A program made the translations under genes and the position numbers. Positions 2,822 through 64,000 of a stretch of DNA of 64,000 nt are shown here, piece after piece. The number at the start of each line of letters is the position of its first letter. Positions within the stretch are counted from its first letter, which is position 1. Source of the DNA: a virus; IMG/VR virus record IMGVR_UViG_3300027733_000032, one strand, 5' to 3'. The notes under the pieces were generated by a model, which made no database searches, was not told the origin of the DNA, and saw only the letters and a program-made list of their open reading frames with translations.

Positions 2822-3264
2822 CTCCTTTGTCCGTTGTGTACCATAACTTCATTCTTGCATATTTCTGTGCCATTGCGCTTCGCTATGACAATATATTTTC
2901 CTGATTTAGGAAATCTATGTTTAATGACAACGCGATGTTCTTCAATAATCTCTGGTGTTATGACACCAATGACACGAACAATATAGTCATCATTATCTAT
3001 TTCTACAAGCGTAAACTCAACTTCTTTACATGAATCAAAATCATCAACAAAGACAAAAATAAAAAGTTCATTAGTTCCTATTTTGGAATTGTAGTCTACA
3101 TATTTTTCAATTGGAATGGAAAGCAATGTTACTTGTGAGTCATCAAAATTCATAGTTTCTGTTCTTGGAGAATGCCCATTTTGTATTGGTAATATCCAGG
3201 AACGAGCAAGTTTTTCCGCATCTCCAAACATTGATTCATCTGGGCAAAAAATAACGCGCTCCAT
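2818..3264 (-). CDS. Hypothetical protein (C-terminal beta-rich, possibly Ig-like)
   Basis: ORF track; overlapping start/stop with neighbours. Confidence 0.6.
   Translation of the reverse strand: MERVIFCPDESMFGDAEKLARSWILPIQNGHSPRTETMNFDDSQVTLLSIPIEKYVDYNSKIGTNELFIFVFVDDFDSCKEVEFTLVEIDNDDYIVRVIGVITPEIIEEHRVVIKHRFPKSGKYIVIAKRNGTEICKNEVMVHNGQRR

Positions 3265-10095: not shown

Positions 10096-10096
<1 letters not shown>
9845..10096 (-). CDS. Hypothetical protein (possible fibre chaperone)
   Basis: Likely start MARIVTFG at 10096 (TAATG overlap with upstream stop). Confidence 0.5.

Positions 10097-13089
<2,993 letters not shown>

Positions 13090-24204: not shown

Positions 24205-24205
<1 letters not shown>
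22427..24205 (-). CDS. Tail fibre with C-terminal intramolecular chaperone (peptidase S74)
   Basis: MAIDFP module; TSSRSLKQDI...LRPVTYKW...GFIAEEVAEVVP...AAIKELEVRVAALE. Confidence 0.85.
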
Positions 24206-27021
<2,816 letters not shown>

Positions 27022-28311: not shown

Positions 28312-29715
28312 TTATGTCGCCGAAGCGTCCGTATATACTGCAGTCGTTCTATTGGGGCCACCAGTAGCAACAAGTGAAAGTCTGGCATATTCTACGGGTC
28401 CTCCACCCGCCGTAGTGGTCTTGGGGACAGGAAGCGGTGGGGCCCCAATCGGCGCAAGATAAACGACAGAAACGCGTTCAACTGGGACCTCGGTAAATGT
28501 CATCTCAATTTGTGCCACAGATATCCCCGATGGGGTGCTTGCAGTCCCAGTCGTAAAATCCGTAGCACGTCGTGTGGCCGTCACACTCATATCATTTATC
28601 ACAAACTCTAGCCCACGTCCAAGGTCTTTGCCACGCCGTAATTGTATTGTCAAAAGTTCATCCATGTTAATGAATGTAATCGGAACTTTACGTTGAGCCA
28701 TTTGTCTCAATTTCTGAATCTGTGGTTCTACTGCAATACTCATACCGTCTGGGACAATCGCACCACCAGTCTCAACTCGGTCCGAAGCAATAATGAAACT
28801 CATGCTAACTTTCATTAATGGCCATCTAGCCCAATCTATAAACGGCAGATTTTCGGCACGAGGTATTTCTACCCATTCACTAGCAAGACCATCATATTTG
28901 ATATTTTGTGGAATATAACGGAATAAAAATTCATCCGTGTATGTATTTCCATTAGGATTTAACCATGTTTGTACAAAACCTGGCTTGGTCGATTTTGAAG
29001 TTGCGACACCAGCATAACCAATTGGCATCCTGACAACCAATCGTACTGCCGAATCCATCTCGTATGCCGTAGATGTGTCTGTGTCGTTTGTTCCGTTTCC
29101 AGTCCCACCTCCACCTCCGCCCCCACCATTCCCTGTTCCTGTTTGGTTATTTATGGACGCGTAGTAGGCGTCTCCAGGATTAACGTAGTTGCCACTCACG
29201 TCCCGAGCCAATGTATCCGCATTGAAGTTGCGTCCATTCGTAGGGCCGCTCGCCGCACTACTAGTGCCACCCTGCTGAAAACTTGCATCGCGTCGAGTTT
29301 TTAGTTCTCTATATCTTGTAAGGCTAATAACAGGATAGTTGTTATCCTTAACCGCATTGTATTTACGGAAAAGTTGATTACTCTTCGCCGAGCCAGAATC
29401 TGGATATGTGGAAATACGTAGATAAAAATTATAATCTCCTGCGCCTATTGCGCCGTTATTGGTTGGGTCAAGCAATTTCCATAACGAACACGCATACAGA
29501 TTGGACATATGATTGCCCGGTCCCTTAACTAGACCAACGCTTCCAGTTTTTACCCATTTTGTTTTAGTTGCCTCGTTCGTATCCCCCTGCCTATCCGTAG
29601 TTTTGTAGCCATCAATTGCTGCACGTGGACTCCACGGGTCTAGTTTTTCAATAAAATACATAGGCCACTCCGTTGAAGTGGTTACCCGACCGCCAGAAAG
29701 TCCATCCTCAAGCAT
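28312..29715 (-). CDS. Tail tube initiator-like protein (contractile-tail tube-initiation domain at C-terminus)
   Basis: FLFRYIPQNIKY..LASEWVEIPR..P.IDW...LMKVSMSF..., located immediately after the tape measure gene. Confidence 0.6.
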   Translation of the reverse strand: MLEDGLSGGRVTTSTEWPMYFIEKLDPWSPRAAIDGYKTTDRQGDTNEATKTKWVKTGSVGLVKGPGNHMSNLYACSLWKLLDPTNNGAIGAGDYNFYLRISTYPDSGSAKSNQLFRKYNAVKDNNYPVISLTRYRELKTRRDASFQQGGTSSAASGPTNGRNFNADTLARDVSGNYVNPGDAYYASINNQTGTGNGGGGGGGGTGNGTNDTDTSTAYEMDSAVRLVVRMPIGYAGVATSKSTKPGFVQTWLNPNGNTYTDEFLFRYIPQNIKYDGLASEWVEIPRAENLPFIDWARWPLMKVSMSFIIASDRVETGGAIVPDGMSIAVEPQIQKLRQMAQRKVPITFINMDELLTIQLRRGKDLGRGLEFVINDMSVTATRRATDFTTGTASTPSGISVAQIEMTFTEVPVERVSVVYLAPIGAPPLPVPKTTTAGGGPVEYARLSLVATGGPNRTTAVYTDASAT

Positions 29716-32700
29716 TAGCGTCTCTCCGCGTTACTTTTACCCGTTGCGGCAATTTTTCTCATGACTACATTTGCAATATCTTCGGCATTCGTGCCACTGA
29801 TATTAAACGAATAATTATTGGTCGTGTTCCCGAGGCCGGATGAATCTCCTTGTGAACCAGCAGCACCAACGGCTGTGTACGAATCGCCAATAGCATTTCC
29901 ACCCTGTGGTGGGACAACGTGCAAATGTCGCGTATCTCCGGCACCGTGGAATTCAGCAAAACCACCAGAACTATTTGTCGAGTCTCTATAAGAGACGAGG
30001 TTTTGTCCGGTAATATCCAGCGCCCTACCCGTTACGTGGTCGGACTTCAATGAACCAAGAGCGTAGTTTCTGTAAGACGAGGTAATACTCCTCTTGCCTG
30101 CGAGGCGTGAATTGACGGAATTATGTGAACTCAATGTATTGCCGAGGTTACTCATTGTTGAGTCACCAATACGCCCGCGAGGTGTTCGTGTATCGCCGCC
30201 CTTGCCGATTGCTTCAATTAATAAATCAACAGACGCCTTGAAGGCTTCAGAGGCACCGGCCAAAGTCGTTGCTGCGTCCGCCATCGGGTCAGCGATTGCT
30301 TCTATCTTCAATCGGAACGCATCCCCATTTGCAGTTGCTATTGACGCTATTACGCTCTTCAGTGCATCTACATTTTTGGGGTCCGTCATATCTCGCGCAG
30401 AAGCGTTTTCTATCGCCATTCGCTGAGTGTCCGTAGTACCTGCTAAGAAACCTGACAGCCCTGCTGTGTCGCCGCCCACCAACCCCTGCCCAGACTTTCC
30501 TAGATTTGATGTAACCATCTGAGTAAGGTCGGACAAGGCTCCACGACTGTTTTCTCCGATAAAGCCTTGCAGTTGATTGCCGTCCTTTGTTGTGGCCAGC
30601 ATGTTGAGTACCGGTTCGAGGCCCTCAAGAGCGCCACCAACTTGAGAAAATGCCGTGCCGCCTTTACCAAACATTTTTTCAAATTCTGCAGTGGCTTTAA
30701 TTTGGTCGCCACCATAGAACGTAGTGAGCGCAGTGGATTGGTCTTGCAGGAACTGCAATACGTCTTGTTGACCTAGTCCGCCAGCATTGAATTTATCTCG
30801 TAATCCGAAGGCATTGACGTCTAATTGTTTTTCTGCTTCTATGGAGTCGATTTTACTAGTAAAATATTTTTGTGATGTTTCTCCAAGGCGATTTGACGCA
30901 GAGGCCATCATCTCACGACGCGTATCAATCATTGCTTCGGATAGTTTTTTGATTTGGTCAATCGACTTGGCAGTTGCGTCATATAGGTCAACACCCACCG
31001 CATCTGCCATTTCATTAATTTTGTCTGTCGACACACCAAAAATCTTTGAGAATCTATCAACTTTCTTGATTGATGTATCTTGAATAAATGTAAATGCATC
31101 TGAGTTACGTTGAGTAGTCTCTTCTAATGTTTTGAAAAACTCTTTAATATTCCCCTTTGCCTTTTTGTATTCTTCTTCTGTCATGTCTTTGGCAAATCCA
31201 CTCTTTGCCTTGTACATCACATCAAGCAAGTCCTTTTGTGCGTTGGTTCCAGCCCTGGCTGCGTTCATTATCTGAAAACTAGCGCCGCCCCCTTCTCCAT
31301 CGCCAATCATGCTCTTCTTGCCTGATTTGTCTTCCGCTACTCCCAATTTACTCATTGCTGCAGCCCTGGCACGACTGCCAGCCTGCGCATCAAAAACACT
31401 CTGTTTCATTTTATCTGCCGTCACACTCATGGCCTGACGACGCTTCGCTTCAGTGAATTCGCCACCACGCTTTAGTCTGCCCAGGGCGTCGACCATGCCA
31501 CCAATGGTGTCTTTCATGACGTCTTCAGCAACTGCTTTAGCGCTTGCAATTGCTTCTTTTTTACGTTTCTTGGCAGCGCCAATAAATCCAGTAATGGCAC
31601 CACCAATTAAACCAACCGCCAGACCTGCAACAGGGTTGACCATTGATATAGCACTACCAAGGGCGATGGCGCCTTGTGCTGCTTCGGGGGCCACGCTAGA
31701 TAACAAACCAAGTGCCGCAGATGCACCCATCGCCGTACTTGCTTTGTTATTTATGCCTTTGAAGTTCTTGTAGCCAGCCTCGCCAACCTTGCCGTGTTCG
31801 CCACCAAAAATTCGCTTATAGGTGACCGTTTCGCGTGCTTGACGGAACATATTGGTCTTTTGACTGAGTCTATCCTTGAGTGTTCCAGTTCCATAGCCAC
31901 CAGGAGCGCCAACATTTTGAGGCGTAGCAATGGTGGCTCTATTGAGCCAATTGTTCTTGACACGTTGTGGTATTGGACTACCAGGAACTGCGCGCTCAAG
32001 ATATGGGAGTTTTTTGTATTCGTCGTACGAGATTAATTGCTTACTTGCAGCGCCGCCCGCACCACCGAAGGCACGCGATACGCGTTTTTCCTCAGAGCGT
32101 GCGGCATGTGCTGCGAGTTTCTGCTCGGATGTCATTCCTTGTGTTGCTCGACCAATGCTATTTAATTGTTTAGAACGGGCCGATGCCATACCAGCACTAG
32201 TAATTGGCATACCATTGGGGCCTAGGAGTCCGCCTGCGGATGTTACTCCCGCAGCACCCGGAACTCCACCTACGCCACCAACAGCATTTTGTCCCATTGC
32301 TGCTTGTCTGCGAGCCTTGTTCGCTGCTCGCTGTTGCTGCAGTGCAGTCTGGCCACCAGAAGTGGCCTGTCCTTTAGGCGTAAAACCGGTGACCGTGACA
32401 TTATCTGCCTTGACTGTCATCAATTTTGTTGAGGGCATGACGCCGCCGATGTGTTTGGTCATGCTTCGTTTTGCACCCATTAGGCCAGCAATTACGGCAA
32501 ATGAACCAAACCCACTACCACCGAACATGCCTTTTATGCCGCCAATCAGCGATGTAAAAATGTCAAATATTCTCGTGACACCATCAATGATTTTATTTAT
32601 AAACGGCAATGCGTCTACAAAAGTTTCACGAACACTTCCTGCGTACTTCATAAATACGGTAATGAAATTTCCAATTGCAGTACCGAACTGCAGGAAGTCA

Positions 32701-34001
32701 TCTTTATTTTTTACTATTAAGTCATTCATGTTGCCGAAACCATCTTTAAACATTGTTCCGAGTGGGCGGAATATATTGCCAATCGCTTGCTCCAGAACTC
32801 TTGCACCATCAATCAATGGTCGCAATTTATCTATGACCATATCCCAGCCATCTCTGAATTTGCCCCACCAACCACCCATTCTGCTGAATATTCCTTCAGA
32901 TTGTGGCCCCCATTTGTGAACAAAATTAACAAAAAATTGAGCGGCTCTGTCGACCATTGAAACAATCTTGTCAAATAAACCTTGATTCCCCCCGAAGGCA
33001 GTAATATCACCGCTCAGTTGAATAACTGTGCGTTTAAATATACTTACAAGTTTGTCCAAAGTTTCTTTTGCTGGCTTAAGGAATGGTCCACCTATGTCAG
33101 CGAACATTGTTTTAATTGAGGCGAAAGATGCCTTGAATCGATTAAGCAACGTATCGTTAACTGCAGCCAATTGACCACTCACACCACCCATTGATGCCAG
33201 TTCGCCACTGTTAATCGCGGCTTTTAATTCCTCTACTGTGTCGATGCCCTTTTTCTTTGCTGTCTCCAATGCCTTGGTCATCTGTGGTCCCATGGCTTTT
33301 GCTGCTTCGGTGACCTTCGAGAATGATGCTTTGGGGTCCTGTAGGGCCGCTACGAGGTCGCCAGCAGCCTTCATGCCCTGTTCTAGCGGTTGCCCGGCGG
33401 CGGCAAAGTCACCAAGGCCCTTAAGTAAGTTCTGTGATGCTGCGGTGAACGTACTGGTCTTGGAAATGGACGCAAAAGCCCCCTGGAGGGCCTCTGCGCC
33501 AGCAGCAGCCAGATTGGTGTCATTCATGAGTGAACGCATAGTCACGGAGACTTGCTGGTAGTTTTTCCCACCCTGAAAAGCGAACATTGATTGTTGCTGC
33601 TCTCGCATCGCTGCTGCTGCGGTAGATATTGCAACACCCACTGCGAGGGCTGCTCCTGCAGCACCTTTAGCGACCCATTGGAAGGCTTTCATGGACATAT
33701 TTCCAAGAACGAACGCTCCATGTACCGCCATCATCGCCGCACCAAGGGCAGCGACTTGGACGGTGGCCAACTTTGCGCTCATGCTGACAAATTTTCCGAT
33801 TGCCTTACCGGTTCCGACAACCATTTTATCAACGGAGTCAAAGTGTTTTTTCCACTTAATATTATTTTGGTCAAGAGCGTGAGTTGTCTGTTTCCCGTAT
33901 AGGGCTGCCTTTGCAGACAGTTTGTCCATTTTGTGGCCAACATTATCTAACTTTTGTTCACCCTTTGTTATGATTCTTACCAAAAGGTTGTTAGTAGCCA
34001 T
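29715..34001 (-). CDS. Tape measure protein with C-terminal Zn-peptidase (M15/DD-peptidase-like) domain
   Basis: 1428 aa, Ala/Gly-rich and helical, located after the tail chaperone; C-terminal SDHVTGRALD...HLHV (H-x6-D...H). Confidence 0.85.
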   Translation of the reverse strand: MATNNLLVRIITKGEQKLDNVGHKMDKLSAKAALYGKQTTHALDQNNIKWKKHFDSVDKMVVGTGKAIGKFVSMSAKLATVQVAALGAAMMAVHGAFVLGNMSMKAFQWVAKGAAGAALAVGVAISTAAAAMREQQQSMFAFQGGKNYQQVSVTMRSLMNDTNLAAAGAEALQGAFASISKTSTFTAASQNLLKGLGDFAAAGQPLEQGMKAAGDLVAALQDPKASFSKVTEAAKAMGPQMTKALETAKKKGIDTVEELKAAINSGELASMGGVSGQLAAVNDTLLNRFKASFASIKTMFADIGGPFLKPAKETLDKLVSIFKRTVIQLSGDITAFGGNQGLFDKIVSMVDRAAQFFVNFVHKWGPQSEGIFSRMGGWWGKFRDGWDMVIDKLRPLIDGARVLEQAIGNIFRPLGTMFKDGFGNMNDLIVKNKDDFLQFGTAIGNFITVFMKYAGSVRETFVDALPFINKIIDGVTRIFDIFTSLIGGIKGMFGGSGFGSFAVIAGLMGAKRSMTKHIGGVMPSTKLMTVKADNVTVTGFTPKGQATSGGQTALQQQRAANKARRQAAMGQNAVGGVGGVPGAAGVTSAGGLLGPNGMPITSAGMASARSKQLNSIGRATQGMTSEQKLAAHAARSEEKRVSRAFGGAGGAASKQLISYDEYKKLPYLERAVPGSPIPQRVKNNWLNRATIATPQNVGAPGGYGTGTLKDRLSQKTNMFRQARETVTYKRIFGGEHGKVGEAGYKNFKGINNKASTAMGASAALGLLSSVAPEAAQGAIALGSAISMVNPVAGLAVGLIGGAITGFIGAAKKRKKEAIASAKAVAEDVMKDTIGGMVDALGRLKRGGEFTEAKRRQAMSVTADKMKQSVFDAQAGSRARAAAMSKLGVAEDKSGKKSMIGDGEGGGASFQIMNAARAGTNAQKDLLDVMYKAKSGFAKDMTEEEYKKAKGNIKEFFKTLEETTQRNSDAFTFIQDTSIKKVDRFSKIFGVSTDKINEMADAVGVDLYDATAKSIDQIKKLSEAMIDTRREMMASASNRLGETSQKYFTSKIDSIEAEKQLDVNAFGLRDKFNAGGLGQQDVLQFLQDQSTALTTFYGGDQIKATAEFEKMFGKGGTAFSQVGGALEGLEPVLNMLATTKDGNQLQGFIGENSRGALSDLTQMVTSNLGKSGQGLVGGDTAGLSGFLAGTTDTQRMAIENASARDMTDPKNVDALKSVIASIATANGDAFRLKIEAIADPMADAATTLAGASEAFKASVDLLIEAIGKGGDTRTPRGRIGDSTMSNLGNTLSSHNSVNSRLAGKRSITSSYRNYALGSLKSDHVTGRALDITGQNLVSYRDSTNSSGGFAEFHGAGDTRHLHVVPPQGGNAIGDSYTAVGAAGSQGDSSGLGNTTNNYSFNISGTNAEDIANVVMRKIAATGKSNAERR

Positions 34002-40103: not shown

Positions 40104-40664
40104 TTATCTATCAGCATTGGGCGGGCGTTCTATGGAGATTCTACCCTCTTCTACCGTCCCAGAAGGGGCCTCCACGGGAACCCATGCTCGTGAATAAGTA
40201 TGATTTTTTATATCCCTATGAATGATGAGTGTTCCGTCAAGCATGAGTTCAAGTTCGTGAAATTTCATACAGAACTTTGAAACAAAACCAGTTTCGTCAA
40301 GTTTTTTGGTCTTACCTAAAGTCCGAACCACGCGAGATAGTTTTTTTGCAACAATTGAACCACGCCCACGATTAACCTGAACGTGGATAATCATTGCGTC
40401 CAATTCGGAACATTCTATGTACGTCACAGGGATTCCTTCAGTGAACATCGCAGCCAAGTGAGGATTTCCTTTAATGAGGCGCACTCTTTGTGTACCATCA
40501 ATGATTTTATTAGTTTCCTTATGAACAATAATTGGAGACAATAAACCCGTTGTTCCTATCGAATCAGCAAGAACGAGCAAGTCTGGTCTGAGAATGTACG
40601 TTGACGTCCAGTCGAATTCTAATAAGTCATTGATATTCACAATGTCAATTTTCATATCATTCAT
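40104..40664 (-). CDS. ParB/sulfiredoxin-like nuclease-domain protein (IbrB-like)
   Basis: LADSIGTTGLLSPIIV...IIDGTQRV...NRGRG; partner of the PAPS-reductase-like gene. Confidence 0.8.
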   Translation of the reverse strand: MNDMKIDIVNINDLLEFDWTSTYILRPDLLVLADSIGTTGLLSPIIVHKETNKIIDGTQRVRLIKGNPHLAAMFTEGIPVTYIECSELDAMIIHVQVNRGRGSIVAKKLSRVVRTLGKTKKLDETGFVSKFCMKFHELELMLDGTLIIHRDIKNHTYSRAWVPVEAPSGTVEEGRISIERPPNADR

Positions 40665-42759
40665 CTTCTTCTTGTTGTAGAGCGGCCAGTCGTACTGAGT
40701 GAGCCTTGGTTTTTGGTCCGACAGGAGAAACCGACGAGACTGTTAGTGAGTTGAGTAGCAAATTGCGAACCAGCCAGTTCATGGGATATGAATAGGGGTC
40801 GGATGCATGCTTTTTCCTAAATTCTGCAGCGTACGACATCGCTCGCCTCTTAAAATCTTCGCCCCAGATATAGGTTTCAATAAATTCCCTAATCTCTGGC
40901 CACCCACCATCTGCGGTTTCTCGGATTAGTTTTTCAATATCAAAATCTGGATACCAGCGTCGCTGTGCGTCGATTTCCGGCCAACACTGCCAGAGCCCAT
41001 CGTAGAATTCTGGTTCCGTCGCAACAACATCACCAATCCGACGAATTGCCACAGCGTGCAATGGAATGCCGACTCGCTTGTTTGAATTGGTCAATGTGGC
41101 GAGGTCGTAATATTCGCAATATTCTGCGCCATGTTCTTCTGAAAGAAACTTGAAAACATCATCAACTTGCCAGTCGTAAATAATCTTTGCAAACTTCATC
41201 GGCAAACCCTTTTTAGACTTGTAGGGGGTAACGATGTAACTTTCATGCAATTTCTGAACAACCGAGCGATATCTGACCATCGACTCGGCAGCACGTACTC
41301 CAGTAATGAAGGCTATGTTGCCAGTCTTTCCCTGAGTCGTGTAATAATCAATATGCTCTGGCAGGGGGCTACGATGGTCTAAGCCGAAGTGGTAAGCCGT
41401 AATTGCCCATTCTGGCATTGGGCGATACAGATTGCATAATTGCATTCGATGCTCGTGCCACAATAATTCGACCATTCGCCTACCAAGAGACCAAACCTCT
41501 GTCCCCGTAGGCAAACAATTCCCCGTGAGAATATGGTCAGCCAGAACAAACGAATGCGTTTTATCTACAACAGCGCAGTAAACTTCATCGCTTCCATCAT
41601 CTTCAACGGAAACAACCTTCCATAAACGCTTACGTCGATTAGTAGATTTAGCAGAAGACAGCCACCTATCTTTGTGATGAGGGATAATGAAAAATTCTGA
41701 AGTTAAATCTTCGCGAGCAATAGTCATTTGCCAAGACTCAGACTCGGCGTTCCCATAAGTGCCGACCACGGCTTTATTTATGCCATGAGTGAAAATTCCT
41801 AGATTCGTACATACTGTCCGGAAAAACTCTAAGTTTTTCTTTTTGGATGATGCGATTGTTACTTTTCCTTCTTTGGATACACACCCATCAGCGGCAAAAT
41901 ATCCAGAAAGCCACCCATAAAGATAGGATGGGGACTCATCGAGTGATGGATAGTCTTTAAAAAAGAAAGGAAGACCAATAGCGCGTGGCTGCTGAATTTC
42001 ATCCTTGCGCGCTCCTGCGCTCGTAGATGTTATGTGACCATCAAAATATTGTTTCATGACAGTATCTTTGTCACCATGAAAAGTTACTTGGCATCCATTC
42101 GAAGACTTATTGCCGTCACCAAATACAAATCCATGAGCAATGCCGAAAGGACTAGGTAATTTGACGTGTCTAAATTTCCAAGCACCAACCAAGCAGTCAC
42201 CTGGCCTTAGGTCTTGAGTTAATCGTTCAATTTTTTCTTCTTTTTGTTTCCCAAGTTCCGTCCATCTATTCCGCACGAACCAGCGGTGGTCGGGCGTCGC
42301 TCTGATTGTCTTGGTGACGCCATTGCGCATTAATGTGACCTTCTGAACATTACGATGACCAAAGTGGCGAATTGGGGCAGTAACCCACACACCCTTATTG
42401 GTCATTAGTTCGTGTTCTTCACCTGCTAGGTCCCTAATCGGAAATGTTCCGCGTCGTGTAATAACTTCAGTATCACCATCGACGCAATACCACTCCATAT
42501 CTACCCAGTCGTAATCCCTTACTTTCATGACATAGTCAAGTAGTACAGGGCTGACCATTTCTTCGTCACGGAAAATTACTTTGACTGGACCAAGTCCGCG
42601 TTCTTCGTGGATTTCTTTGGCTAAATAAAGAACGGCGCTAGAATCTTTACCGCCAGAAAATTGAACACAGACAGTATCGAAGGTGTCGTAAACGTGGCGG
42701 ATACGCTGCCGTGCAGCCTCTACGCACGAAATATCCAGAAACATGCGTTGCCGAGTCAT
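40657..42759 (-). CDS. PAPS-reductase-like PP-loop protein (IbrA/DndC-like) containing an intein
   Basis: VQFSGGKDS PP-loop, FRDEE, ITGVRAAES..RY, PIYDW-like KIIYDWQ. Confidence 0.85.
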   Translation of the reverse strand: MTRQRMFLDISCVEAARQRIRHVYDTFDTVCVQFSGGKDSSAVLYLAKEIHEERGLGPVKVIFRDEEMVSPVLLDYVMKVRDYDWVDMEWYCVDGDTEVITRRGTFPIRDLAGEEHELMTNKGVWVTAPIRHFGHRNVQKVTLMRNGVTKTIRATPDHRWFVRNRWTELGKQKEEKIERLTQDLRPGDCLVGAWKFRHVKLPSPFGIAHGFVFGDGNKSSNGCQVTFHGDKDTVMKQYFDGHITSTSAGARKDEIQQPRAIGLPFFFKDYPSLDESPSYLYGWLSGYFAADGCVSKEGKVTIASSKKKNLEFFRTVCTNLGIFTHGINKAVVGTYGNAESESWQMTIAREDLTSEFFIIPHHKDRWLSSAKSTNRRKRLWKVVSVEDDGSDEVYCAVVDKTHSFVLADHILTGNCLPTGTEVWSLGRRMVELLWHEHRMQLCNLYRPMPEWAITAYHFGLDHRSPLPEHIDYYTTQGKTGNIAFITGVRAAESMVRYRSVVQKLHESYIVTPYKSKKGLPMKFAKIIYDWQVDDVFKFLSEEHGAEYCEYYDLATLTNSNKRVGIPLHAVAIRRIGDVVATEPEFYDGLWQCWPEIDAQRRWYPDFDIEKLIRETADGGWPEIREFIETYIWGEDFKRRAMSYAAEFRKKHASDPYSYPMNWLVRNLLLNSLTVSSVSPVGPKTKAHSVRLAALQQEEDE
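41518..42486 (-). mobile_element. Intein (323 aa) with LAGLIDADG homing endonuclease
   Basis: Begins CVDGDTEVIT (block A); LAGLIDADG-like AHGFVFGDG and YGWLSGYFAADG; ends VYCAVV...HSFVLADHILTGN followed by Cys+1. Confidence 0.9.
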
Positions 42760-44566: not shown

Positions 44567-46498
44567 CTACTTGATTGGGCAGGCACCAGTAGCGCAATCA
44601 TCCAATTCAACCAAACCATCAAATGCTGGACGATGTAGGGGAACGGAGAAATCAATCCTGCTCAGCGACTTCTCATAGGCCTCTTTGGTGCATTCTTCAT
44701 ATGGTGGCAATGGGAAGTTGTGGTCCGTATGAAGAAGGAATGAAACCGACTTCACAGAATTGTCGTAATTCTTTGAGAGCCACTCTTTGATTTCCGAAAG
44801 TTCTTCCTTGCGATAATACACGGTCACCGAAACAGCATTGTCTGCCCATTCGGTCTGCATTTTCTTGACCCACTCAAGTTGAGCCACCGCAGTCATGCTG
44901 CTTGCCAGCACAGAGCCCTCAGGGGACTCACAGGGGAATTCAACAACAAAGCGAGTGTGGTCTTCACGACCATCGATTCCAACGTCGTAGCAGACCTTGT
45001 AGCCGCGCTTGCGGCAAGCCTCAACCAATGGGTCAGATGAACCAAAGCGGACGCGACGAATATAATACGGCGCGAATGCTGGGTGAATCCCTGGCGTGAC
45101 GCCAGGAAGCAATGAAAGCGTCCCTGAGGGCTGTACGGTTGTCAGACGAACCGAGACGGGCAATCCATTCTCTTTTGAATACTGAGCGTCAAGCGCCTCT
45201 AGGTAGTCGTATGCATCGGCCAACCACGAAATTTTATCCTCTGAGCACTGAAGGATTCCCGTAATAGACTGGCCTAGACGAGCATTCTTTTGGACAATTT
45301 TGGTCGTCTTCTCGTATGGGTAGTTCATGCGAGTAATTTGCTTTTGAGTTTTGTATAGCAAATATGAGATGTCCTTAAATTGTTCTGAAGAAGCAATATT
45401 TGGGAGGAAAATCGTTGAGAGGTTGCATGATTCACCATCACCTAGTGCAATTTCAGCACAAGGATTAAATCCTTCAATGGTCGGGTCAGCCTTGAGTTGT
45501 CCTACGCGACCGAACTTGCGGGCAAGTTTGCGATTAACTAGGCCATAGGGCTCTCCGGTGCCGTCATAACCCTTCCATAGTTCTGCAGCAATCTCGTCAT
45601 AGCCATCTGCGTAGATGCTGTTATTACTGTTTGCTCGCCATGCGGGAACATTTCCGGAACCCCAGTTCTTTGCACGGAGAAACAGCACGTCATCAGGGTC
45701 ACCGATGGCGATTTGCGCCGAACGACGCGACGAACCCGACACAACGATACGACCAATGATGTTGCAAATGTCCAAAACGTCAATGGAGCGAAGTTTCTTG
45801 CCAACACGATTTTCAAGGACTTTACAAATGTCCGAGATGCCATCAATGAGAGCACCAGGGCCCGATGCAGTCCCACCGAACTTCTTCAGTGGGGCGCCGT
45901 ATTCGCGAACAAGAATCGTCGAATACGTAAATGAACGACCTGTTTCAAAATATGACTTCAGCACTGAATGAAGTAGGCGACGCCATCCTTGACGACTATC
46001 GGGAACGATAATGTCTGCATCATTAGTACGTTCGTGACTAATCGTGATTCCGCCCTTAACTTTGGGCAAATCATGAATCTTTGAGCGTTCAACAGAGAAG
46101 CCGACTCCGCCACCAAGCATGAGGTAATCGAAAAGAAGTTCAAAGTCTTCAATCTTCTCGATGTTGGTGAAGTAACAGTTATTGAGACTCGTGCCTGAGA
46201 ATTCTTTTGTCAAGGTTGTCCCAAGTTGCCACAATGAGCGACCCGCAAATGAACAACGAAGGTTGAACATGTGGTCAAAAAGACGTTCTGCTTCTTCCTG
46301 AGTATATGGAACGCCAATATCAATAGCGCCGTTAATGACTCGTTGAAGTGTTTCTACCCAAGTTTCCGTATCTCCATTATCTTTTTTGCGACTATAAGTA
46401 CGCAGAAAAACGATTTCCCCCATTCCGTTAAATCCCCATGGTGGTGTTTGCTCTGAGTAATTACGTACAAATTCATCGGAAATCCGGGTCATAGCCAT
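44567..46498 (-). CDS. nrdJ: Class II (adenosylcobalamin-dependent) ribonucleotide reductase, monomeric RTPR type
   Basis: GFNPCAEI catalytic motif, GESCNL, TTVQPSGT, C-terminal CATGACPIK; no small subunit nearby. Confidence 0.9.
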   Translation of the reverse strand: MAMTRISDEFVRNYSEQTPPWGFNGMGEIVFLRTYSRKKDNGDTETWVETLQRVINGAIDIGVPYTQEEAERLFDHMFNLRCSFAGRSLWQLGTTLTKEFSGTSLNNCYFTNIEKIEDFELLFDYLMLGGGVGFSVERSKIHDLPKVKGGITISHERTNDADIIVPDSRQGWRRLLHSVLKSYFETGRSFTYSTILVREYGAPLKKFGGTASGPGALIDGISDICKVLENRVGKKLRSIDVLDICNIIGRIVVSGSSRRSAQIAIGDPDDVLFLRAKNWGSGNVPAWRANSNNSIYADGYDEIAAELWKGYDGTGEPYGLVNRKLARKFGRVGQLKADPTIEGFNPCAEIALGDGESCNLSTIFLPNIASSEQFKDISYLLYKTQKQITRMNYPYEKTTKIVQKNARLGQSITGILQCSEDKISWLADAYDYLEALDAQYSKENGLPVSVRLTTVQPSGTLSLLPGVTPGIHPAFAPYYIRRVRFGSSDPLVEACRKRGYKVCYDVGIDGREDHTRFVVEFPCESPEGSVLASSMTAVAQLEWVKKMQTEWADNAVSVTVYYRKEELSEIKEWLSKNYDNSVKSVSFLLHTDHNFPLPPYEECTKEAYEKSLSRIDFSVPLHRPAFDGLVELDDCATGACPIK

Positions 46499-57527: not shown

Positions 57528-59558
57528 ATGGCATGGAATAAGACAGAAACAAAATCACTCATCCCTGGTCCGACTAGGGCCATTCTTGGGCCTGGTGCTC
57601 CGATTGCACAAAACCCATCCTTTGAAGGCAAGGGATACCGTGACCCGTGGGACATTGAACGTGCCTACAAAGAGGGAATGCAGAAAGTTACTTGGGTTTC
57701 CCGTTGCATTGACGCAATTGCCGGGAATCAGGCACGCCTTCCAATTATTCTTCGTAAGAACAACTCTCCTGATGGCCAGATTGTAAGCAAGGGCAGGAGC
57801 GGGAAGTCAACAATATTAGACCTCTTAAATACCAAGTCCAATATTGGTGAAAATTCATACATTTTTAGGTACAGAATGTCATCTCAGATTTTGCTGGGAA
57901 CTCGTGGTGCCTTTATTGAAAAAGTGCGTGGGCGAGATGGTGGGATTATTGGACTAAACCTGCTCCCGCCGCAGCATACAAGCCCTATTCCCGACCCTAA
58001 AACTTTTGTTTCTGGATACGAAGTCCTTATGCCGAATGGCGACAAGGTAATCATGAAACCTCAGGACGTATGCTGGATTCGTAGGCCACACCCAATTGAC
58101 CCGTATCTTTCCTTGACTCCAATGGAATCTGCTGGTGTTGCCATTGAAATTGAAAACTTAGCCAAACTATATAACCGCAACTTCCTTCTCAATGACGGTA
58201 GACCCGGTGGGCTTCTTGTTCTTCGTGGAGAGATTGACGATGATGATAAAGAAGAATTGAGAAGTCGATTCAGAGGAAATATTGGACGAGTTGGCTCAAC
58301 TACGGTAGTTAGTGCGGATGATGGCGTTGATTTCGTGGATACCTCATCAAGCCCAAGAGATGCCGCCTATATCCAAATGCGTCAAATTACAAAAGAGGAA
58401 ATTCTTGCCTCTTTCGGAGTCCCCGAATCAGTCATTGGCAACGCCTCTGGCAGAACTTTCAGCAATGCGAGTGAAGAAATCCGTGTTTTCTGGAATGAAA
58501 CGATGGGGCCACACTTGGAAATTCTTGCCAGAGCACTCGACGAACTAGACGATGACCATTACGTCGATTTTGACACTTCGTCTGTCCCTGTTTTGATTAT
58601 GGCCAAACAAGAGGTTGAGCGTTATAGCCTAGAAGAATTCAGAAGCGGAATGATAAGTCTAAACGAATATAGGACTGTGACTGGCAGGGAAAAAGTTGAG
58701 TCAGAACTGGCCGACAGCCTCCTAATGAACCCCAACCTGACCCCAATCGGCAATACGGAAAAGCCCATGGCCCCACCACAGCAGGGTATGCCCATGCCGG
58801 GGGCACAGCCAGGAATGCCGCCGGGAATGCCGGGAATGCCACCAGAAGCAGCAGGAATGCCCCCAGGGGCGCCAGATGCAAATACGATGAGCGGTGCACT
58901 TGCCATGGAGCAAGCCGGGGGAATGGCCACTCCAGGAGGCGCTCCTGCGATACCCCCAGAGATGACTGGAGGCCCTGCGGCTGCCGGTCCGGGAGCGTTC
59001 GGTCAAATGTCCATGAATCCTGCGGAAATGCAGTTCAAAGAAGACATTAGTGAAGTTTCGCTCAATCGCTGGACCGAGATATTAGATAGAAGTCTCGAAC
59101 GAGTTATGGAGCGTAGTCAGCGTGTTGTTTTAGAAAAATTGAGTGGTCAAAAATCAAAGAAATCCCTAGCCCAGGGTGTTCTTGACATAAATTCAATTCT
59201 TCAAACCGATGTTTGGACCAGACAGATGGACGAGGACATTCGACCCGTTCTGTCTGCCATTATAAAAGACTCAAAAATCAATCATGCGGAGAAGTGGGCA
59301 ATGTATACGCCCCCCACAAACGAAGAAACTGCCGTAAACATAGATGCTCAAATGGGAAGAATAAAATCCCTTTATGATTCCTGCGTAGCAACACTTTCAG
59401 AATCTATATTCAACTCTTACGGGATAAGTAGTGATGATGAGCGGTATACCGCTTTACGGACGTCTGTTAATACCGTCTTTACGGACATGTTAGCCAACCA
59501 GCGTCCACGCATTGCTTCCTCAGAGGCAAAACGCGCATGGGAATTCTGCCGCCCATAA
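57528..59558 (+). CDS. Portal protein (HK97 family) with Pro/Gly/Met-rich insert and C-terminal extension
   Basis: WVSRCIDAIA..A.LP, LLNTKSN, NG.PGGLL, I..SFGVP..VIG..S..TFSNA. Confidence 0.9.
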   Translation: MAWNKTETKSLIPGPTRAILGPGAPIAQNPSFEGKGYRDPWDIERAYKEGMQKVTWVSRCIDAIAGNQARLPIILRKNNSPDGQIVSKGRSGKSTILDLLNTKSNIGENSYIFRYRMSSQILLGTRGAFIEKVRGRDGGIIGLNLLPPQHTSPIPDPKTFVSGYEVLMPNGDKVIMKPQDVCWIRRPHPIDPYLSLTPMESAGVAIEIENLAKLYNRNFLLNDGRPGGLLVLRGEIDDDDKEELRSRFRGNIGRVGSTTVVSADDGVDFVDTSSSPRDAAYIQMRQITKEEILASFGVPESVIGNASGRTFSNASEEIRVFWNETMGPHLEILARALDELDDDHYVDFDTSSVPVLIMAKQEVERYSLEEFRSGMISLNEYRTVTGREKVESELADSLLMNPNLTPIGNTEKPMAPPQQGMPMPGAQPGMPPGMPGMPPEAAGMPPGAPDANTMSGALAMEQAGGMATPGGAPAIPPEMTGGPAAAGPGAFGQMSMNPAEMQFKEDISEVSLNRWTEILDRSLERVMERSQRVVLEKLSGQKSKKSLAQGVLDINSILQTDVWTRQMDEDIRPVLSAIIKDSKINHAEKWAMYTPPTNEETAVNIDAQMGRIKSLYDSCVATLSESIFNSYGISSDDERYTALRTSVNTVFTDMLANQRPRIASSEAKRAWEFCRP

Positions 59559-59682: not shown

Positions 59683-61143
59683 ATGTCGCAAAATACCACG
59701 TCAGATATCAATTTCAAGGCACTTAATGGGCAGTTCAATATTGATGAGGCCCAAGGAATCGTCGAATGTTTTGTTGCTGCTATTGGCAACAAGGACAGCG
59801 TAGGCGACGTAATTGTCTCGGGGGCGTTTAATGAAAGTCTCAAGCGTCGCAAGCCTCGCGTAGTTTGGGGACACAGTTGGAATGACCCCATCGGTAAGGT
59901 CATCGAGATTTACGAAGTACCCGCAAACGACCCGCGACTGCCAGCAAAGATGAAGCAGGCCGGAGTTGGTGGAGTTTATGCACGCGTTCAGTTTAATCTC
60001 GCAACTGAAAAAGGAAGAGAAGCATTCTCTAGCGTTGCATTCTTTGGTCCAGAACAAGAATGGTCAATTGGCTACAAGACACTCAATGCCACTTTCGACC
60101 CAAATGTACAGGCTAACATTTTAAGAGAAGTCGAACTTTATGAAGTAAGTCCTGTTCTCCATGGTGCCAATCAGTTGACCGCCACCATCTCCGTAAAGAG
60201 CGAAGAGGGTGAAAAGTGTGGCGTTCCAATGGGTATGCCAAATTCCCCTCATATGTACGGTGGTACCCCTGCCCCCTCTGCAATACCACGGATTGTCTCC
60301 GTTGATGCCAACAGGCTTTCTCCAATACGAGTCATTAGTGGAGTTGCCCAGCAGGCCCGACCCGACCATAGCAATAATTCACGTGAAGATATTTTTGGTG
60401 AAGGAGAGGCGAGAACACTTTCGGATGAAGCACGGAATATGCTTGCCATGGAATTAATGACGCGTTCCCGTGCGAATCTTGATGTTGTTTATGCAACAGA
60501 AAATTCCGTAGTATTCAACCGCGAGGTTGGGCAAGGAAACCACATTACATACCGTCTTTCGTATTACAGAGACCCGGATAGTGGCGAATATATGTTTGGC
60601 AAGCCCGAAAAAATGGGCAGTCATAGCGATGACAGTAGAATTGCCTCGCCAACCGTAGTCCCATCACAGATGCCTTCGATGCCAATGATGGTCAAACCAC
60701 AGGCCGTCAATCCGTACTCGATGAGCGGAATGCCTTCTGCTGTTCCCCAGATGGGTAATTATGGAATGGAAAAGTCACTTGATTTTGGCGCAGATACAGC
60801 GGCAGATTTTGTTCTTTCAGGAATTCAAAACGGCTCTATTTCTTCGTCTACCGGAAATGAAAAAATTGACGCAGTTATTGACATTCTCAAGGGAATGACC
60901 GGGAAGTCGGATAATCAGCAGGTATTTACCATTGCGTGTGAACCACATGAGGCTTTCTATATTAAGTCAGCAATCGACCCGGTTCTCGAATACCACCGCC
61001 TTGATGTAGAAATCGACGAATACGGTATTCATGTCGTCAATGGGCTATCCACTGAATCAATTAGCGCATTAACCAAGGCCGCAGAATCTATCGAAACTAT
61101 CACCACTAAGGCTGGTGGTTCAAAAAAATACAAGCGCCCTTAG
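59683..61143 (+). CDS. Prohead maturation protease (HK97 family) with C-terminal extension
   Basis: IGNKDSVGDVIVSGAF, VVWGHSWNDPIGK (His), WSIGY (Ser), LYEVSPVLHGAN; likely start ATG 59683 with SD AGGAG. Confidence 0.9.
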   Translation: MSQNTTSDINFKALNGQFNIDEAQGIVECFVAAIGNKDSVGDVIVSGAFNESLKRRKPRVVWGHSWNDPIGKVIEIYEVPANDPRLPAKMKQAGVGGVYARVQFNLATEKGREAFSSVAFFGPEQEWSIGYKTLNATFDPNVQANILREVELYEVSPVLHGANQLTATISVKSEEGEKCGVPMGMPNSPHMYGGTPAPSAIPRIVSVDANRLSPIRVISGVAQQARPDHSNNSREDIFGEGEARTLSDEARNMLAMELMTRSRANLDVVYATENSVVFNREVGQGNHITYRLSYYRDPDSGEYMFGKPEKMGSHSDDSRIASPTVVPSQMPSMPMMVKPQAVNPYSMSGMPSAVPQMGNYGMEKSLDFGADTAADFVLSGIQNGSISSSTGNEKIDAVIDILKGMTGKSDNQQVFTIACEPHEAFYIKSAIDPVLEYHRLDVEIDEYGIHVVNGLSTESISALTKAAESIETITTKAGGSKKYKRP

Positions 61144-64000
61144 TTTTCGGCCTTGGGTTAAGTCTCGAATCTAAGGGCCTAGGGCCAAAAATTGGAACAC
61201 GACTTAGTGGTGGGCTTCGTGCAGCACCGCCAGGAATGTCATTTGTTGACATAACAGGAACCGTTGACGCAGATACAGACGGAATAGTGTTTGAAGGCAA
61301 GCCCGGTCTTGAACGACCCATAATCCCTAGATTCCTTGTACCTAAGAATCTTGCTCGCAAAATTTCTTCACTCACCGAAGGCGACGCCCTAGAAATAGAA
61401 AAGCAACGACGCAGTGGTGACGGCAATATTTCCTTTGACGAAACAAAACTTCGCTCAATTATTGAAAAAATTGGCGGAGACGTCAACTCCTTGAAGCCCG
61501 TGGACGATACAGCCGAAACCGGCATGCGTAGTGCGAACGCCTCAGACGGCCCGGATTTCCAAGAACCACCGATTGCCGATGTACCAGAACAGTTTGATGG
61601 TTTCTGGACCCCAGACGAAGAACAATTGCGCGACCTAGATAAGCGTTCTGGTCGCAGGACACCTCCTCCTCCTCCTGCCAATATCGGGCAGAAGTATGTA
61701 ATTTCACGGGATGATGATGGCGTTTATTTTGCGGAGAATATTTCAGCAGAAGATGTTTGGTCGCTTCGTTCCGGTGCATCAAAAGCGCCGAAGCGTCCTT
61801 TCTTTGCCCCACGTGGAGGCGGGAATAAGCCAGATAACGGCGAAGGTTATTACTTCTCTACAAACGGAAAACGCTATTGGGGCAAGTATGGCGCAGCGGG
61901 AGCGTTGGTCCGTCGTAAAAATTCAGACGGAGAATACGAATATTTTCTAGCGAGACGCGCTGATGGTATGTCGGTCGGTGGTGGCAAGTGGTCATTCCCT
62001 GGTGGGGCACACAAAGATAAAGAAAATTCAAAACTTCCAGGTGCTACTGCGATTGAAGAATTTGGCGAAGAGGTTGGTGGAGATATCTCTACACTCAAAC
62101 CAATTCACACCTACACAGACCAGGTTGCCCCTGACTGGAAATACGACACTTACGTGTTTGAGGTTGGGCCGGATGAACTGAATGACTTACGGTCGATGGA
62201 CGGCGAAAGCACTGATACGGGTTGGTTTACGGCATCTGACATTATACAAATGGCAGAAGACGACAAACTTCTAGAGTCATTCAAACGTTCAGCAAAAGAA
62301 GTATTTGCTCTTTCTGGAGATGAAGTCAAGGGCAATAAAACTACAAGAAAAATTAAAAAAACATTGAAGAAAATTAGTGGCGAAAAAGTTACTTCTTGGC
62401 AAGAAAAGATAAAAAAATACGAACCAATTGAACCAGAAGATTATTTTGATATCAATAATGAAATGCAGTCTGATTTTGGTATTTCTATTGGCCAAGTGAT
62501 GCAGGATGAATACGATGAAGGCGCATCTATTAAGGAGATTGCGGAAAACTGGGGAATTTCAGCCCATGAAGTTGAAAAATTGCTTAGTGAAAATAAAAAG
62601 GGCGGAATGTCATCAACTTCCGTCGGACAAATCATGCAGGATGAATACGACGAGGGTGCGTCAATAAAAGAAATTGCAGAAAATTGGGATATAACGACTC
62701 AAGAAGTTGAAGATTTTATGAGTCGACCACCTTCTGTCGGGATGTCATCTGCCAAAACGAATAGAGATTCACGAGGGCGCGACGCAACGCCAGCAAAAAA
62801 GAAAAAATTAGACTCCGTTATAGATTTTGTTATAGACAAAATTAGTCCAGTCACAGTAATCCAAGCATATATAGATTTTTCTGATAGACGACAGGAAAAA
62901 AAGAATCCAAGCCTTACGGCTGAACGTCTTGCAAGAGAAGAAAAAATGAAGTCAGGAGTCGATAAAGCAGGCAAATCAGGCATATCTATTGCTACAAAAA
63001 TGGCATTACCAGAGTACAAGACGCTTATGGAGAAAGTTTCCCTAAATGGGGAGACTGTTCTGGCAAGTACATCAGCAAGAACTGCCGAAGTTCAAAAACT
63101 TATCGACAATTTGGCATCAAAAGTTGATGGTGATTTGGATGGAATGGATTTCTCCAAAGGAAACTTCTCTGGCATTGATTTTAAAAATTACTCATTACGT
63201 AACGCAAGTTTCTTTGGCTCCACTCTTGATAAATCTAATTTTTCTGGATGCATTATTGACAGCGCCACTTTTGAAGATGCTTCTTTAATTGATGCAAATT
63301 TAAGCAAGATAAGTCAAGCATGGCGCATCGATTTCTCGGGAGCGAATCTAACAAATGCAGATTTAACCAAACTCAATATGCACTCCGCTCTATTGAACGA
63401 AACAAACCTTGAAGGGGCAAAACTTGATGGAGTAAATCTAATCATGGCTGACATTAGGGATATGGATTTCTCTAACGCTCGAAGCATGAGGGGTGTCTTG
63501 CTAGAAGAAGTACAGGGAGAAGGTGCAAACTTTGGTGGTCTCGATATGACCAACTCATCCTTTGTCTCCGCAAACTTGACAAACACTAATTTTAGTAATG
63601 CAAATTTAACTCGTTCAGATTTAAGAAACGCAAAACTGGATAAGGCTGATTTTAGTGGCGCAAACATGGAGGGTATTGAACTAGAAAAACCAGGTTTATC
63701 TCCATCCAGCATGAAAGAAACAAAATTTGACAATATGCCGACCAAGGGCGAAGAGGGCACCCCTTCGGGTATGAGTTCCCTTACGCGTCCCTATCGTGAT
63801 ACCAGTGATGAAGAGTTAAAGGCCCTGTACGAAAAATATTTACGTTACCTAGGCGGCCCTGGGGACAAGGGTGACAGCGATTTTACATACATGCGACGGT
63901 CAAAAGAATATGACAAAATTAAGAAAGAAATTGCTCGGCGTGAGAAAGATGGCAAAAAACCAAGCAAGGGAATGAGTTCTGAAACAAAGTTGCCAGGAAA
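61110..64000 (+). CDS. Giant multidomain protein in the -1 frame of the protease (NUDIX, 2x HTH, pentapeptide repeats; GM[SR]S linkers), runs off the window
   Basis: Manually translated: no stop from 61110 to 64000; RYWGKYGAAG...PGG...EEFGEEVG NUDIX; duplicated DEYDEGASIKEIAENW HTH; A(D/N)LxxA pentapeptide array. Confidence 0.85.
61122..61178 (+). promoter_or_regulatory. Predicted programmed -1 ribosomal frameshift signal
   Basis: In-frame A-AAA-AAA (61122-61128), 7-nt spacer, stem GCCCTTAG (61136-43) / CTAAGGGC (61171-78). Confidence 0.7.

Follow-up and report, generated by a model that had tools for sequence, protein, structure and literature searches.

Recurrent G-M-x-S peptides at the module joints of a giant phage protein, candidate processing sites of a coupled prohead protease

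Giant reading frame and its recurrent peptide

We analyzed a stretch of viral DNA of 64,000 nucleotides (IMG/VR virus record IMGVR_UViG_3300027733_000032), referred to as the window over its full length. At the 3' end of the window, on the + strand, genes for a terminase, a portal protein and an S78 (HK97-type) prohead serine protease are followed by a giant open reading frame (ORF), the coordinates of which are collected in Table 1. The original prediction, made from the window's letters, had drawn attention to a peptide, Gly-Met-[Ser/Arg]-Ser, recurring between the modules of this giant ORF. It proposed that the peptide is a protease recognition site at which a packaged precursor is cut into separate effectors, or else an assembly or packaging tag.

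The ORF seen in the window (61236-63998+, 921 aa) is the N-terminus of a protein of 3,430 aa, P0001, which runs past the window end. We recovered the full P0001 from the protein collection and from L052, a 130-kb contig of the same phage. P0001 is a chain of unrelated units: the leader, a NUDIX hydrolase with a helix-turn-helix (HTH), another HTH, a pentapeptide-repeat array, a small helical cassette, a unit at aa 2765-3004 and others. On L052 the P0001 gene is followed on its 3' side by a gene for a 598-aa protein and then by a second giant ORF of 3,429 aa, called giant 2 below. A nucleotide search of the phage collection returned no match, and a protein search with the 921-aa fragment returned pentapeptide-repeat matches only.

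All five sites of the original prediction, one GMRS and four GMSS, were found at their positions in the + frame from 61236, and the variety of their Gly and Ser codons was confirmed. We compared the number of sites with that in shuffled sequences of the same composition. GM[SR]S occurred five times in the 921 window residues, while the shuffles contained 0.03 on average and 2 at most (0/3000 reached 5). The enrichment held for G-M-x-S in the full protein, where 17 copies were counted against 0.75 expected, and for the recurrent peptide of orthologues described below. Gly-Met dipeptides of P0001 were followed by x-Ser in 17 of 21 cases. In the remaining 16,759 residues encoded by the window there were six G-M-x-S, of which only one was GM[SRAGM]S. 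The 17 sites of P0001 use all four Gly codons (GGA, GGC, GGG and GGT) and all six Ser codons, TCN as well as AGY. Therefore it is the peptide that is constrained rather than the DNA.

G-M-x-S was 100% conserved among the close relatives P0001, P0002 and P0003, compared with a background of 88%. The 24 residues flanking the sites were less hydrophobic than average (0.19 vs 0.27, P<2e-4); the linkers that hold the sites are polar. The third position is nearly free in this lineage and in L002, where we observed S, R, A, G, M, P, L, E and T. One further sequence, PGMSF at 61233, had been taken for a weaker copy of the motif. It proved to be something else, a part of the junction and leader sequence GGLR[AST]A-P-x-G-[ML]-x-[FW]-VD, which is kept in every lineage whatever linker peptide that lineage has.

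Since every site in this lineage contains an ATG, and the annotated ORF start itself reads G-M-S-F, the Met of the motif might serve as an internal translation start; the motif might also be a by-product of recombination or repeat elements at the DNA level. However, a Shine-Dalgarno-like 4-mer preceded 2/17 motif Met codons and 8/88 other Met codons, and there is no Met at the homologous sites of the lineages with STRS, SSRS, GARS, GFAS or GSKS (see below). The codons differ at every position, and 12 degenerate bases are unable to guide recombination. On the Met-less lineages, the Shine-Dalgarno counts and the codon variety we rejected both internal starts and DNA repeats, which we find hardly credible.

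The sites were also said to fall at module boundaries. This was borne out: they lie after the leader, after each of the two HTH, after the pentapeptide array and after the helical cassette of 65 residues, and all of them are outside the Pfam matches. L002 is devoid of the HTH-2 cassette, and the missing stretch spans exactly from motif to motif. L001 is devoid of the helical cassette of about 65 aa, and the position of site 4 reads GIAS in L001. Giant 2 contains two tandem copies of this cassette (aa 3025-3090 and 3096-3166; 77-83% identity), and GMRS stands near the ends, at aa 3029 and 3163. Further, of the 21 ends of homology blocks shared with distant giants, 8 lay no more than 20 aa from a site (P about 0.01-0.02). 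The widely shared unit of aa 2765-3004 lies between the sites at 2745 and 3010, and the homology block 1885/1887-2405 begins at the site at 1887. Module A, with the NUDIX and HTH matches, was found at other positions in other giant proteins.

Table 1. Features of the portal-protease-polyprotein region, in window coordinates; aa numbers of the polyprotein count from the annotated ATG at 61236
Feature	Position	Strand	Basis or remark
Portal protein, 676 aa	57528..59558	+	PF04860, E 1e-45
S78 (HK97-type) prohead serine protease, 486 aa from ATG 59683	59683..61143	+	PF04586, phrog_80
Junction peptide, -1 frame, 5' of the annotated ATG	61110..61235	+	conservation at protein level; GGLRA at 61209-61223
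A7 run, putative -1 slip site joining protease to polyprotein	61122..61128	+	A_AAA_AAA in protease frame
Hairpin, 4 nt 3' of the slip site	61133..61180	+	folding of 61118-61200
Leader, aa 1-95	61236..61520	+	most conserved polyprotein unit
Site 1, GMRS, aa 96-99	61521..61532	+	
Module A: N-terminal extension, NUDIX hydrolase (aa 221-340), HTH-1 (aa 420-455)	61533..62603	+	PF00293, HTH matches
Site 2, GMSS, aa 457-460	62604..62615	+	
HTH-2 cassette, ~41 aa (HTH match aa 466-497)	62616..62738	+	
Site 3, GMSS, aa 502-505	62739..62750	+	
Module C: helical region, then pentapeptide-repeat array (~aa 630-836)	62751..63767	+	PF00805, E 7e-28
Site 4, GMSS, aa 845-848	63768..63779	+	
Helical cassette, ~65 aa	63780..63968	+	
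Site 5, GMSS, aa 912-915	63969..63980	+	12 further sites beyond the window

Coupling of the polyprotein to the prohead protease

The protease matched PF04586 with an E value of 4.5e-12 (46.9 bits, cut-off 21) and also phrog_80, head maturation protease. The list of ORFs gives TTG 59659 as its start; AGGAG precedes the ATG at 59683, and the gene caller chose the ATG start in L052. The protease domain covers approximately aa 31-183 (numbered from TTG 59659) and is followed by an extension of about 300 aa. His72, Ser136 and Glu162, which we take to be the catalytic residues of the S78 family, were invariant in 11 relatives, therefore the S78 protease is probably active. A sequence search of the PDB with the protease found no relative.

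The C-terminal extension of the protease contains one GMPS (60703-60714, aa 349-352 from ATG 59683), and GMPS is a linker form of L002. It has no counterpart in the STRS or GMRS lineages. This GMPS could be an autoprocessing site.

The frame of the giant ORF is open from 61110, is -1 relative to the protease and overlaps the last 34 nt of the protease gene, including A_AAA_AAA. Folding of the stretch 61118-61200 gave a minimum free energy of -22.9 kcal/mol (z-score -2.05 vs shuffles). An A7 or A8 run at the end of the protease ORF, together with an overlapping -1 giant frame, was present at five loci, namely in the window, L001, L002, L003 and L059, down to 62% protease identity (L003). The locus has what is expected of a programmed -1 frameshift: a slippery heptamer in the zero frame, an overlapping -1 ORF, a downstream structure and conservation. 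It is probable that a -1 frameshift at the A7 run fuses the protease to the polyprotein; transcriptional slippage would give the same product.

The peptide encoded in the -1 frame before the annotated start (…GPKIG-x-RL-x-GGLR[AST]A-P-x-G-M-S-F-VDITG…) is conserved as protein both in the frameshifted and in the directly fused relatives. The GGLRA of the window reads GGLRS in L003 and P0038, and L003 has Leu in place of the annotated start Met of the window. Before 61236 we found no Shine-Dalgarno sequence at a useful spacing. Judged by its sequence, the giant ORF is without a convincing start of its own.

In other relatives no frameshift is needed. L004, L005, L009, L011 and L018 carry an in-frame fusion, in which protease and polyprotein form one ORF of 3,658 aa and more. 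The protease frame continues to the end of the locus in L007, L010, L014 and L016, and several database proteins are likewise continuous. All relatives with a continuous ORF have the same junction and leader directly after the protease, with the leader at approximately aa 490-588 of the fused protein. The leader was 65-76% identical across lineages whose other modules were less than 40% identical or absent.

Lineage-specific versions of the peptide

We performed an unbiased 4-mer enrichment scan on 47 homologous giant proteins and on the giant ORFs of about 50 related loci. One dominant tetrapeptide was found per lineage. It is GM[SR]S in this phage and L001, G-M-x-S with nearly any x in L002, and GMRS, accompanied by GFRS and GLRS, in the group of L004, L009 and G001 (up to 23 per protein). 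P0004-P0014 and L059 have STRS, with 8-13 copies per protein. The remaining versions are SSRS (L003, G002), G[SAL]RS (P0037, P0038), GARS (L025, L028, L029), GLAS (L027), GFAS (P0041) and GSKS-T (P0036). The final Ser is the sole position common to all lineages; at the third, most of them have Arg or Lys. The change can be followed at a single orthologous site, the one after the leader, which reads GMRS in the window, GLRS in L002, SSRS in L003 and either SKRS or STRS in the STRS lineage; the fused lineage again has GMRS.

The second giant of each phage bears the version of its own phage. There were seven G-M-x-S in giant 2 of the phage studied here, while giant 2 of an STRS phage contained STRS five times in addition to xTRS variants. 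On G001, a 125-kb contig of a related phage, 50 of the 52 G[MLF]RS belonged to four giants encoded between protease and capsid. That interval (contig 10876-52704; L061-L067) comprises five ORFs of 934-3,661 aa, in total 12,089 aa or about 29% of the contig, and the motif is absent from the ORF of 934 aa. The peptide has thus changed in concert at every joint of every giant while its codons were scrambled, therefore a reader acting in trans on the peptide is expected, and the pattern points to a single reader of this kind.

Further, we compared 105 giant proteins (at least 1,500 aa) which share modules with P0001. A recurrent peptide was present in 28/30 giants with the junction and leader and in 4/75 without them (Fisher P=6e-19, a value that overstates the independence of the proteins, which are kin). 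The six discordant giants can be explained: the two of the 30 carry variants (GSKSTT; G.RS-RS), and the four of the 75 are N-terminal truncations or a direct protease fusion. The NUDIX and aa 2765-3004 modules also occur in giants that are not coupled to a protease, which served as a negative control, and there they are not accompanied by a code. No recurrent tetrapeptide was found in many other NUDIX-bearing giants (P0050-P0192). Tandem HTH arrays in P0111 and P0142 were considered as well and set aside as unrelated to the motif.

It could be argued that the peptide is never cut, and that it is a flexible joint or a docking or modification site (e.g. a phospho-acceptor on which the kinase-like module acts, or a binding site for a factor of the capsid interior or of the host) within one giant chain. 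Some polyvalent proteins, the virion RNA polymerase of N4 among them, are packaged unprocessed (PMC5512222), the Arg-Ser of most lineages resembles the site of a basophilic kinase, and the similarity of the sites is partly inherited, as cassettes are copied along with their flanking motif. However, a plain linker needs no four conserved positions kept through full codon turnover, and it would not switch jointly at all sites of all giants of a genome. Further, the motif goes with the protease-coupled architecture and is absent from the leaderless giants that share the NUDIX and aa 2765-3004 modules. We therefore regard an uncut peptide as rather improbable.

Outside the giants, we noted two similar peptides in the ORF 29715-34001 (minus strand, 1,428 aa), which we presume to encode the tape-measure protein because it lies 3' of the sheath, tube and chaperone genes. 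GMAS at aa 604 and GMTS at aa 622 lie there in a Gly-rich linker between two conserved halves. At the same place the orthologues have GMRS (G001, aa 620) and ASRS (G002, aa 625). They are suggestive and may mark a processing site in a tail protein, but their number is no more than chance permits in such low-complexity sequence, and we did not use them as evidence.

Candidate enzyme, scissile bond and comparison with known systems

Taken together, we consider it likely that G-M-x-S peptides are proteolytic processing sites of some kind. The comparative data, that is the enrichment, the module boundaries, the concerted change between lineages and the fusion or frameshift onto the protease, clearly favour the cleavage proposed in the original prediction. 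Its claim of an undescribed system went too far, given the systems described in PMC5512222 and PMC10052503. We found nothing that supports assembly or packaging tags.

More specifically, we estimate a probability of roughly 55% that the sites are cut by the S78 prohead protease within the procapsid, the cargo polyprotein being built onto the protease. Under this model some ribosomes would slip at the A7 run and produce a protease-polyprotein fusion, and its protease part would bring the chain into the assembling procapsid. The activated S78 protease would then cut each G-M-x-S, and probably also the conserved GGLR[AS] junction. As a result approximately 18 separate proteins would be released, kept in the head and passed into the host with the DNA.

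Two registers of the scissile bond fit the peptide. In the first, HK97-like, the cut would fall between x and Ser, with a basic P1 in most lineages and Ser at P1'. In the second it would fall after the invariant Ser, with a hydrophobic P3 (M/L/F/T/S across lineages), a free P2 and a small P1 (Ser), which is the P3-x-P1 layout of the T4, phiKZ-type and herpesvirus assemblin-fold proteases. The G-M-x-S lineages, with their free third position, favour the register after Ser; overall we leave the choice between the two registers even.

We also looked at the capsid proteins of related phages (L054-L058, P0194-P0313). These HK97-fold proteins have a coiled-coil, delta-like N-terminus of approximately 97 aa, followed by x-[F/G/A]-K-[S/T]-[ILV]-G at about aa 97-101, with Lys in 94/112 and Ser in 90/112 of the proteins. 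The conserved Lys-Ser/Thr is probably the maturation cut, and x-[FGA]-K-[ST] fits the general pattern x-x-(K/R)-S.

Several observations weigh against cleavage of the linker peptide by the S78 protease. The S78 domain is 72-84% identical between lineages that differ at positions 1 and 2 of the peptide, so that a change of specificity leaves no obvious trace in the enzyme. The capsid site is independent of the linker peptide, reading FK-S in GMRS and SSRS lineages alike. Characterised HK97-type enzymes have a basic P1, with which a nearly free third position agrees badly. Between giant 2 and the protease there is no fusion, and the route of giant 2 into the head is not explained by the model. 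We predicted the structure of the 921 residues with four homologues (predicted local distance difference test, pLDDT, 33) and of the junction and leader with ten sequences (pLDDT 52); both low-confidence models place the sites in coil or in low-confidence stretches, and they are too poor to show linkers. The junction and leader had no match among 50,697 phage records. All phages of the group are uncultured, and the case for a cleavage code is wholly one of comparative inference.

Another enzyme might do the cutting. Giant 2 contains a zincin-like metallopeptidase module (HVMWHELGH, aa 562), which would act in the head or after ejection. The module, which includes an HExxH motif, is flanked by GFSS (aa 443) and GMLS (aa 1095), and language-model leads, weak ones with scores <=0.82, named ATLF, Peptidase_M90 and Mx1 zincins. 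Both the STRS lineage and G001 have kept the module, at 36-38% identity compared with about 83% for the S78 domain of the same phages; its divergence is therefore rapid enough to follow a change in the peptide. A hydrophobic position 2 (M, L, F) would suit a thermolysin-like P1', and there is a precedent in the MPTase proposed to release domains of polyvalent proteins (PMC5512222). However, position 2 is not hydrophobic in the STRS, SSRS, GSRS, GARS and GSKS lineages, the module matched no Pfam family even at E up to 1, and the match in G002 leaves the HExxH region uncovered. A zincin that cut before packaging would free the cargo from its carrier, and the fusion or frameshift of the polyprotein onto S78 would be left unexplained. 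For these reasons we hold cleavage by the zincin-like module to be improbable, and the S78 protease remains our preferred enzyme.

Polyvalent proteins of phages and conjugative elements, processed by embedded peptidases, were described by Iyer, Burroughs, Anand, de Souza and Aravind in 2017 (PMC5512222). Like P0001, they contain many unrelated effector-type domains in one polypeptide and are encoded among head genes. They are predicted to be packaged, delivered and split by a peptidase, and the analogy to polyproteins of RNA viruses is drawn in the same paper. With its unrelated predicted domains (NUDIX, two HTH and a pentapeptide array within 921 aa) and its late/virion gene context, P0001 is a polyvalent protein in the sense of these authors. 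In their survey a zincin-like MPTase is the usual processing enzyme, while assemblin-like peptidases are rare and "always at the C termini" (PMC5512222). The word "linker" has 0 occurrences in PMC5512222, and no recurring linker peptide is described there. Here, in contrast, an assemblin-like S78 protease is placed N-terminally by a predicted frameshift or by fusion, and a lineage-specific peptide of four residues marks every joint.

Short motifs read by head proteases are known from other phages. T4 gp21 cuts at L/I-x-E, and the P3-x-P1 layout is also found in herpesvirus assemblin. Prohead proteases of the phiKZ/SPN3US type (gp175/gp245) trim head-internal proteins at A/S/G-x-E; for SPN3US gp245 the motif is A-x-E, again in P3-x-P1 form, with Ser favoured at P1' (PMC10052503). 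In SPN3US 14 sites were mapped in 9 proteins, and 13/14 of the cuts remove N-terminal propeptides from separate gene products (PMC10052503). In the T4/phiKZ type a short phage-specific motif is read by the head-maturation protease in the procapsid, on capsid and cargo alike, and such reading is proposed here for the cargo. In contrast, about 17 sites would here split one chain into unrelated enzymes, and the protease, a member of the S78/HK97 family, would be joined covalently to the chain that it cuts.

The logic is akin to that of retroviral Gag-Pro-Pol. The protease part would be made in excess, a minority fusion produced by a -1 frameshift would carry enzymes into the particle, and the embedded protease would then cut. 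The resemblance is no more than an analogy. Neither the protease fold nor the capsid is related, the cargo would consist of host-directed effectors and not of replication enzymes, and the frameshift and the cuts are here predicted from sequence.

Among S78 enzymes, HK97 gp4 and phi12 gp32 offer the closest comparison within the same Pfam family. The HK97 cut is K103|S104. The phi12 enzyme gp32 (S78) cuts after Arg/Lys (R128|L129 and K87|Q88), and R or K precedes the cuts of the phi12 capsid protein and of Ccm (PMC8569155). Both enzymes share with the protease of the window the conserved His, Ser and Glu, and their Lys/Arg cuts resemble the x-x-R-S of most lineages and the capsid K-S. However, they are free proteins of about 25 kDa which digest a delta domain or a scaffold. 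We know of no enzyme of this type that carries or dissects a multi-enzyme polyprotein.

When capsid proteins were compared, the closest cultured phages (45-49% identity) were the myophages Brevibacterium phage Cantare and Gordonia phages GMA6 and Chidiebere. Cantare (L075) and Chidiebere (L076) have cargo-like genes that stand as ORFs of their own, placed between the genes for portal and protease. Both contain an RNA ligase, and Chidiebere additionally has a VIP2-like ADP-ribosyltransferase and an HTH protein of 971 aa in the same interval. The polyprotein may be a fused version of the separate cargo gene set of these cultured relatives. Our literature searches turned up no account of a protease-frameshift-polyprotein in which a joint peptide recurs. 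The apparent novelty lies in the explicit peptide between modules, specific to each lineage, together with the N-terminal coupling of a protease, including the frameshift.

More than 3,100 related capsid-protein clusters scored in public metagenomes, therefore we are not dealing with an isolated oddity. One capsid homologue, P0247, was labelled as coming from a Pontimonas metagenome-assembled genome. This label and the capsid identity to the Brevibacterium and Gordonia phages each suggest hosts among the Actinomycetota. The wider picture, which we put forward tentatively, is of widespread freshwater phages, probably of actinobacteria, which in a retrovirus-like manner would extend their head protease, through a frameshift or a fusion, into polyproteins several thousand residues long. 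Once assembly is complete, these would be split into dozens of injected enzymes wherever the phage-specific code of four residues occurs, and the code would drift together with its reader.

If the peptide is a cutting signal, approximately 18 effector boundaries in P0001, and dozens per genome in relatives, could be read from sequence. An ORF of 380 kDa that could not be annotated would become a catalogue of candidate injected proteins for host takeover or anti-defence. If the S78 protease is the reader, an HK97-type protease would be both carrier and processor of cargo, and foreign proteins could be loaded into capsids by a simple rule. The lineage versions would be natural protease/site pairs in which the change of specificity could be studied.

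We also recorded features outside the polyprotein and its protease. The 598-aa protein encoded before giant 2 (giant 2 itself at L052 22182-30293 and L074 11827-21797) matched no family, PepSY appearing only at E 0.7. The portal protein has a long C-terminal extension of low complexity, rich in Gly, Met and Pro (GMPPGMPGMPP…, window 58700-58930). Genes for sheath, tube, chaperone and tape-measure proteins are located elsewhere in the window. Between the tail and head modules, on the minus strand, there are a PAPS-reductase-like gene (40657-42759) and a ribonucleotide reductase gene (44567-46498). Two large minus-strand ORFs, 10096-13074 and 24205-27021, contain collagen triple-helix repeats (PF01391, E 3.5e-72 and 2.7e-13), and are probably tail fibres.

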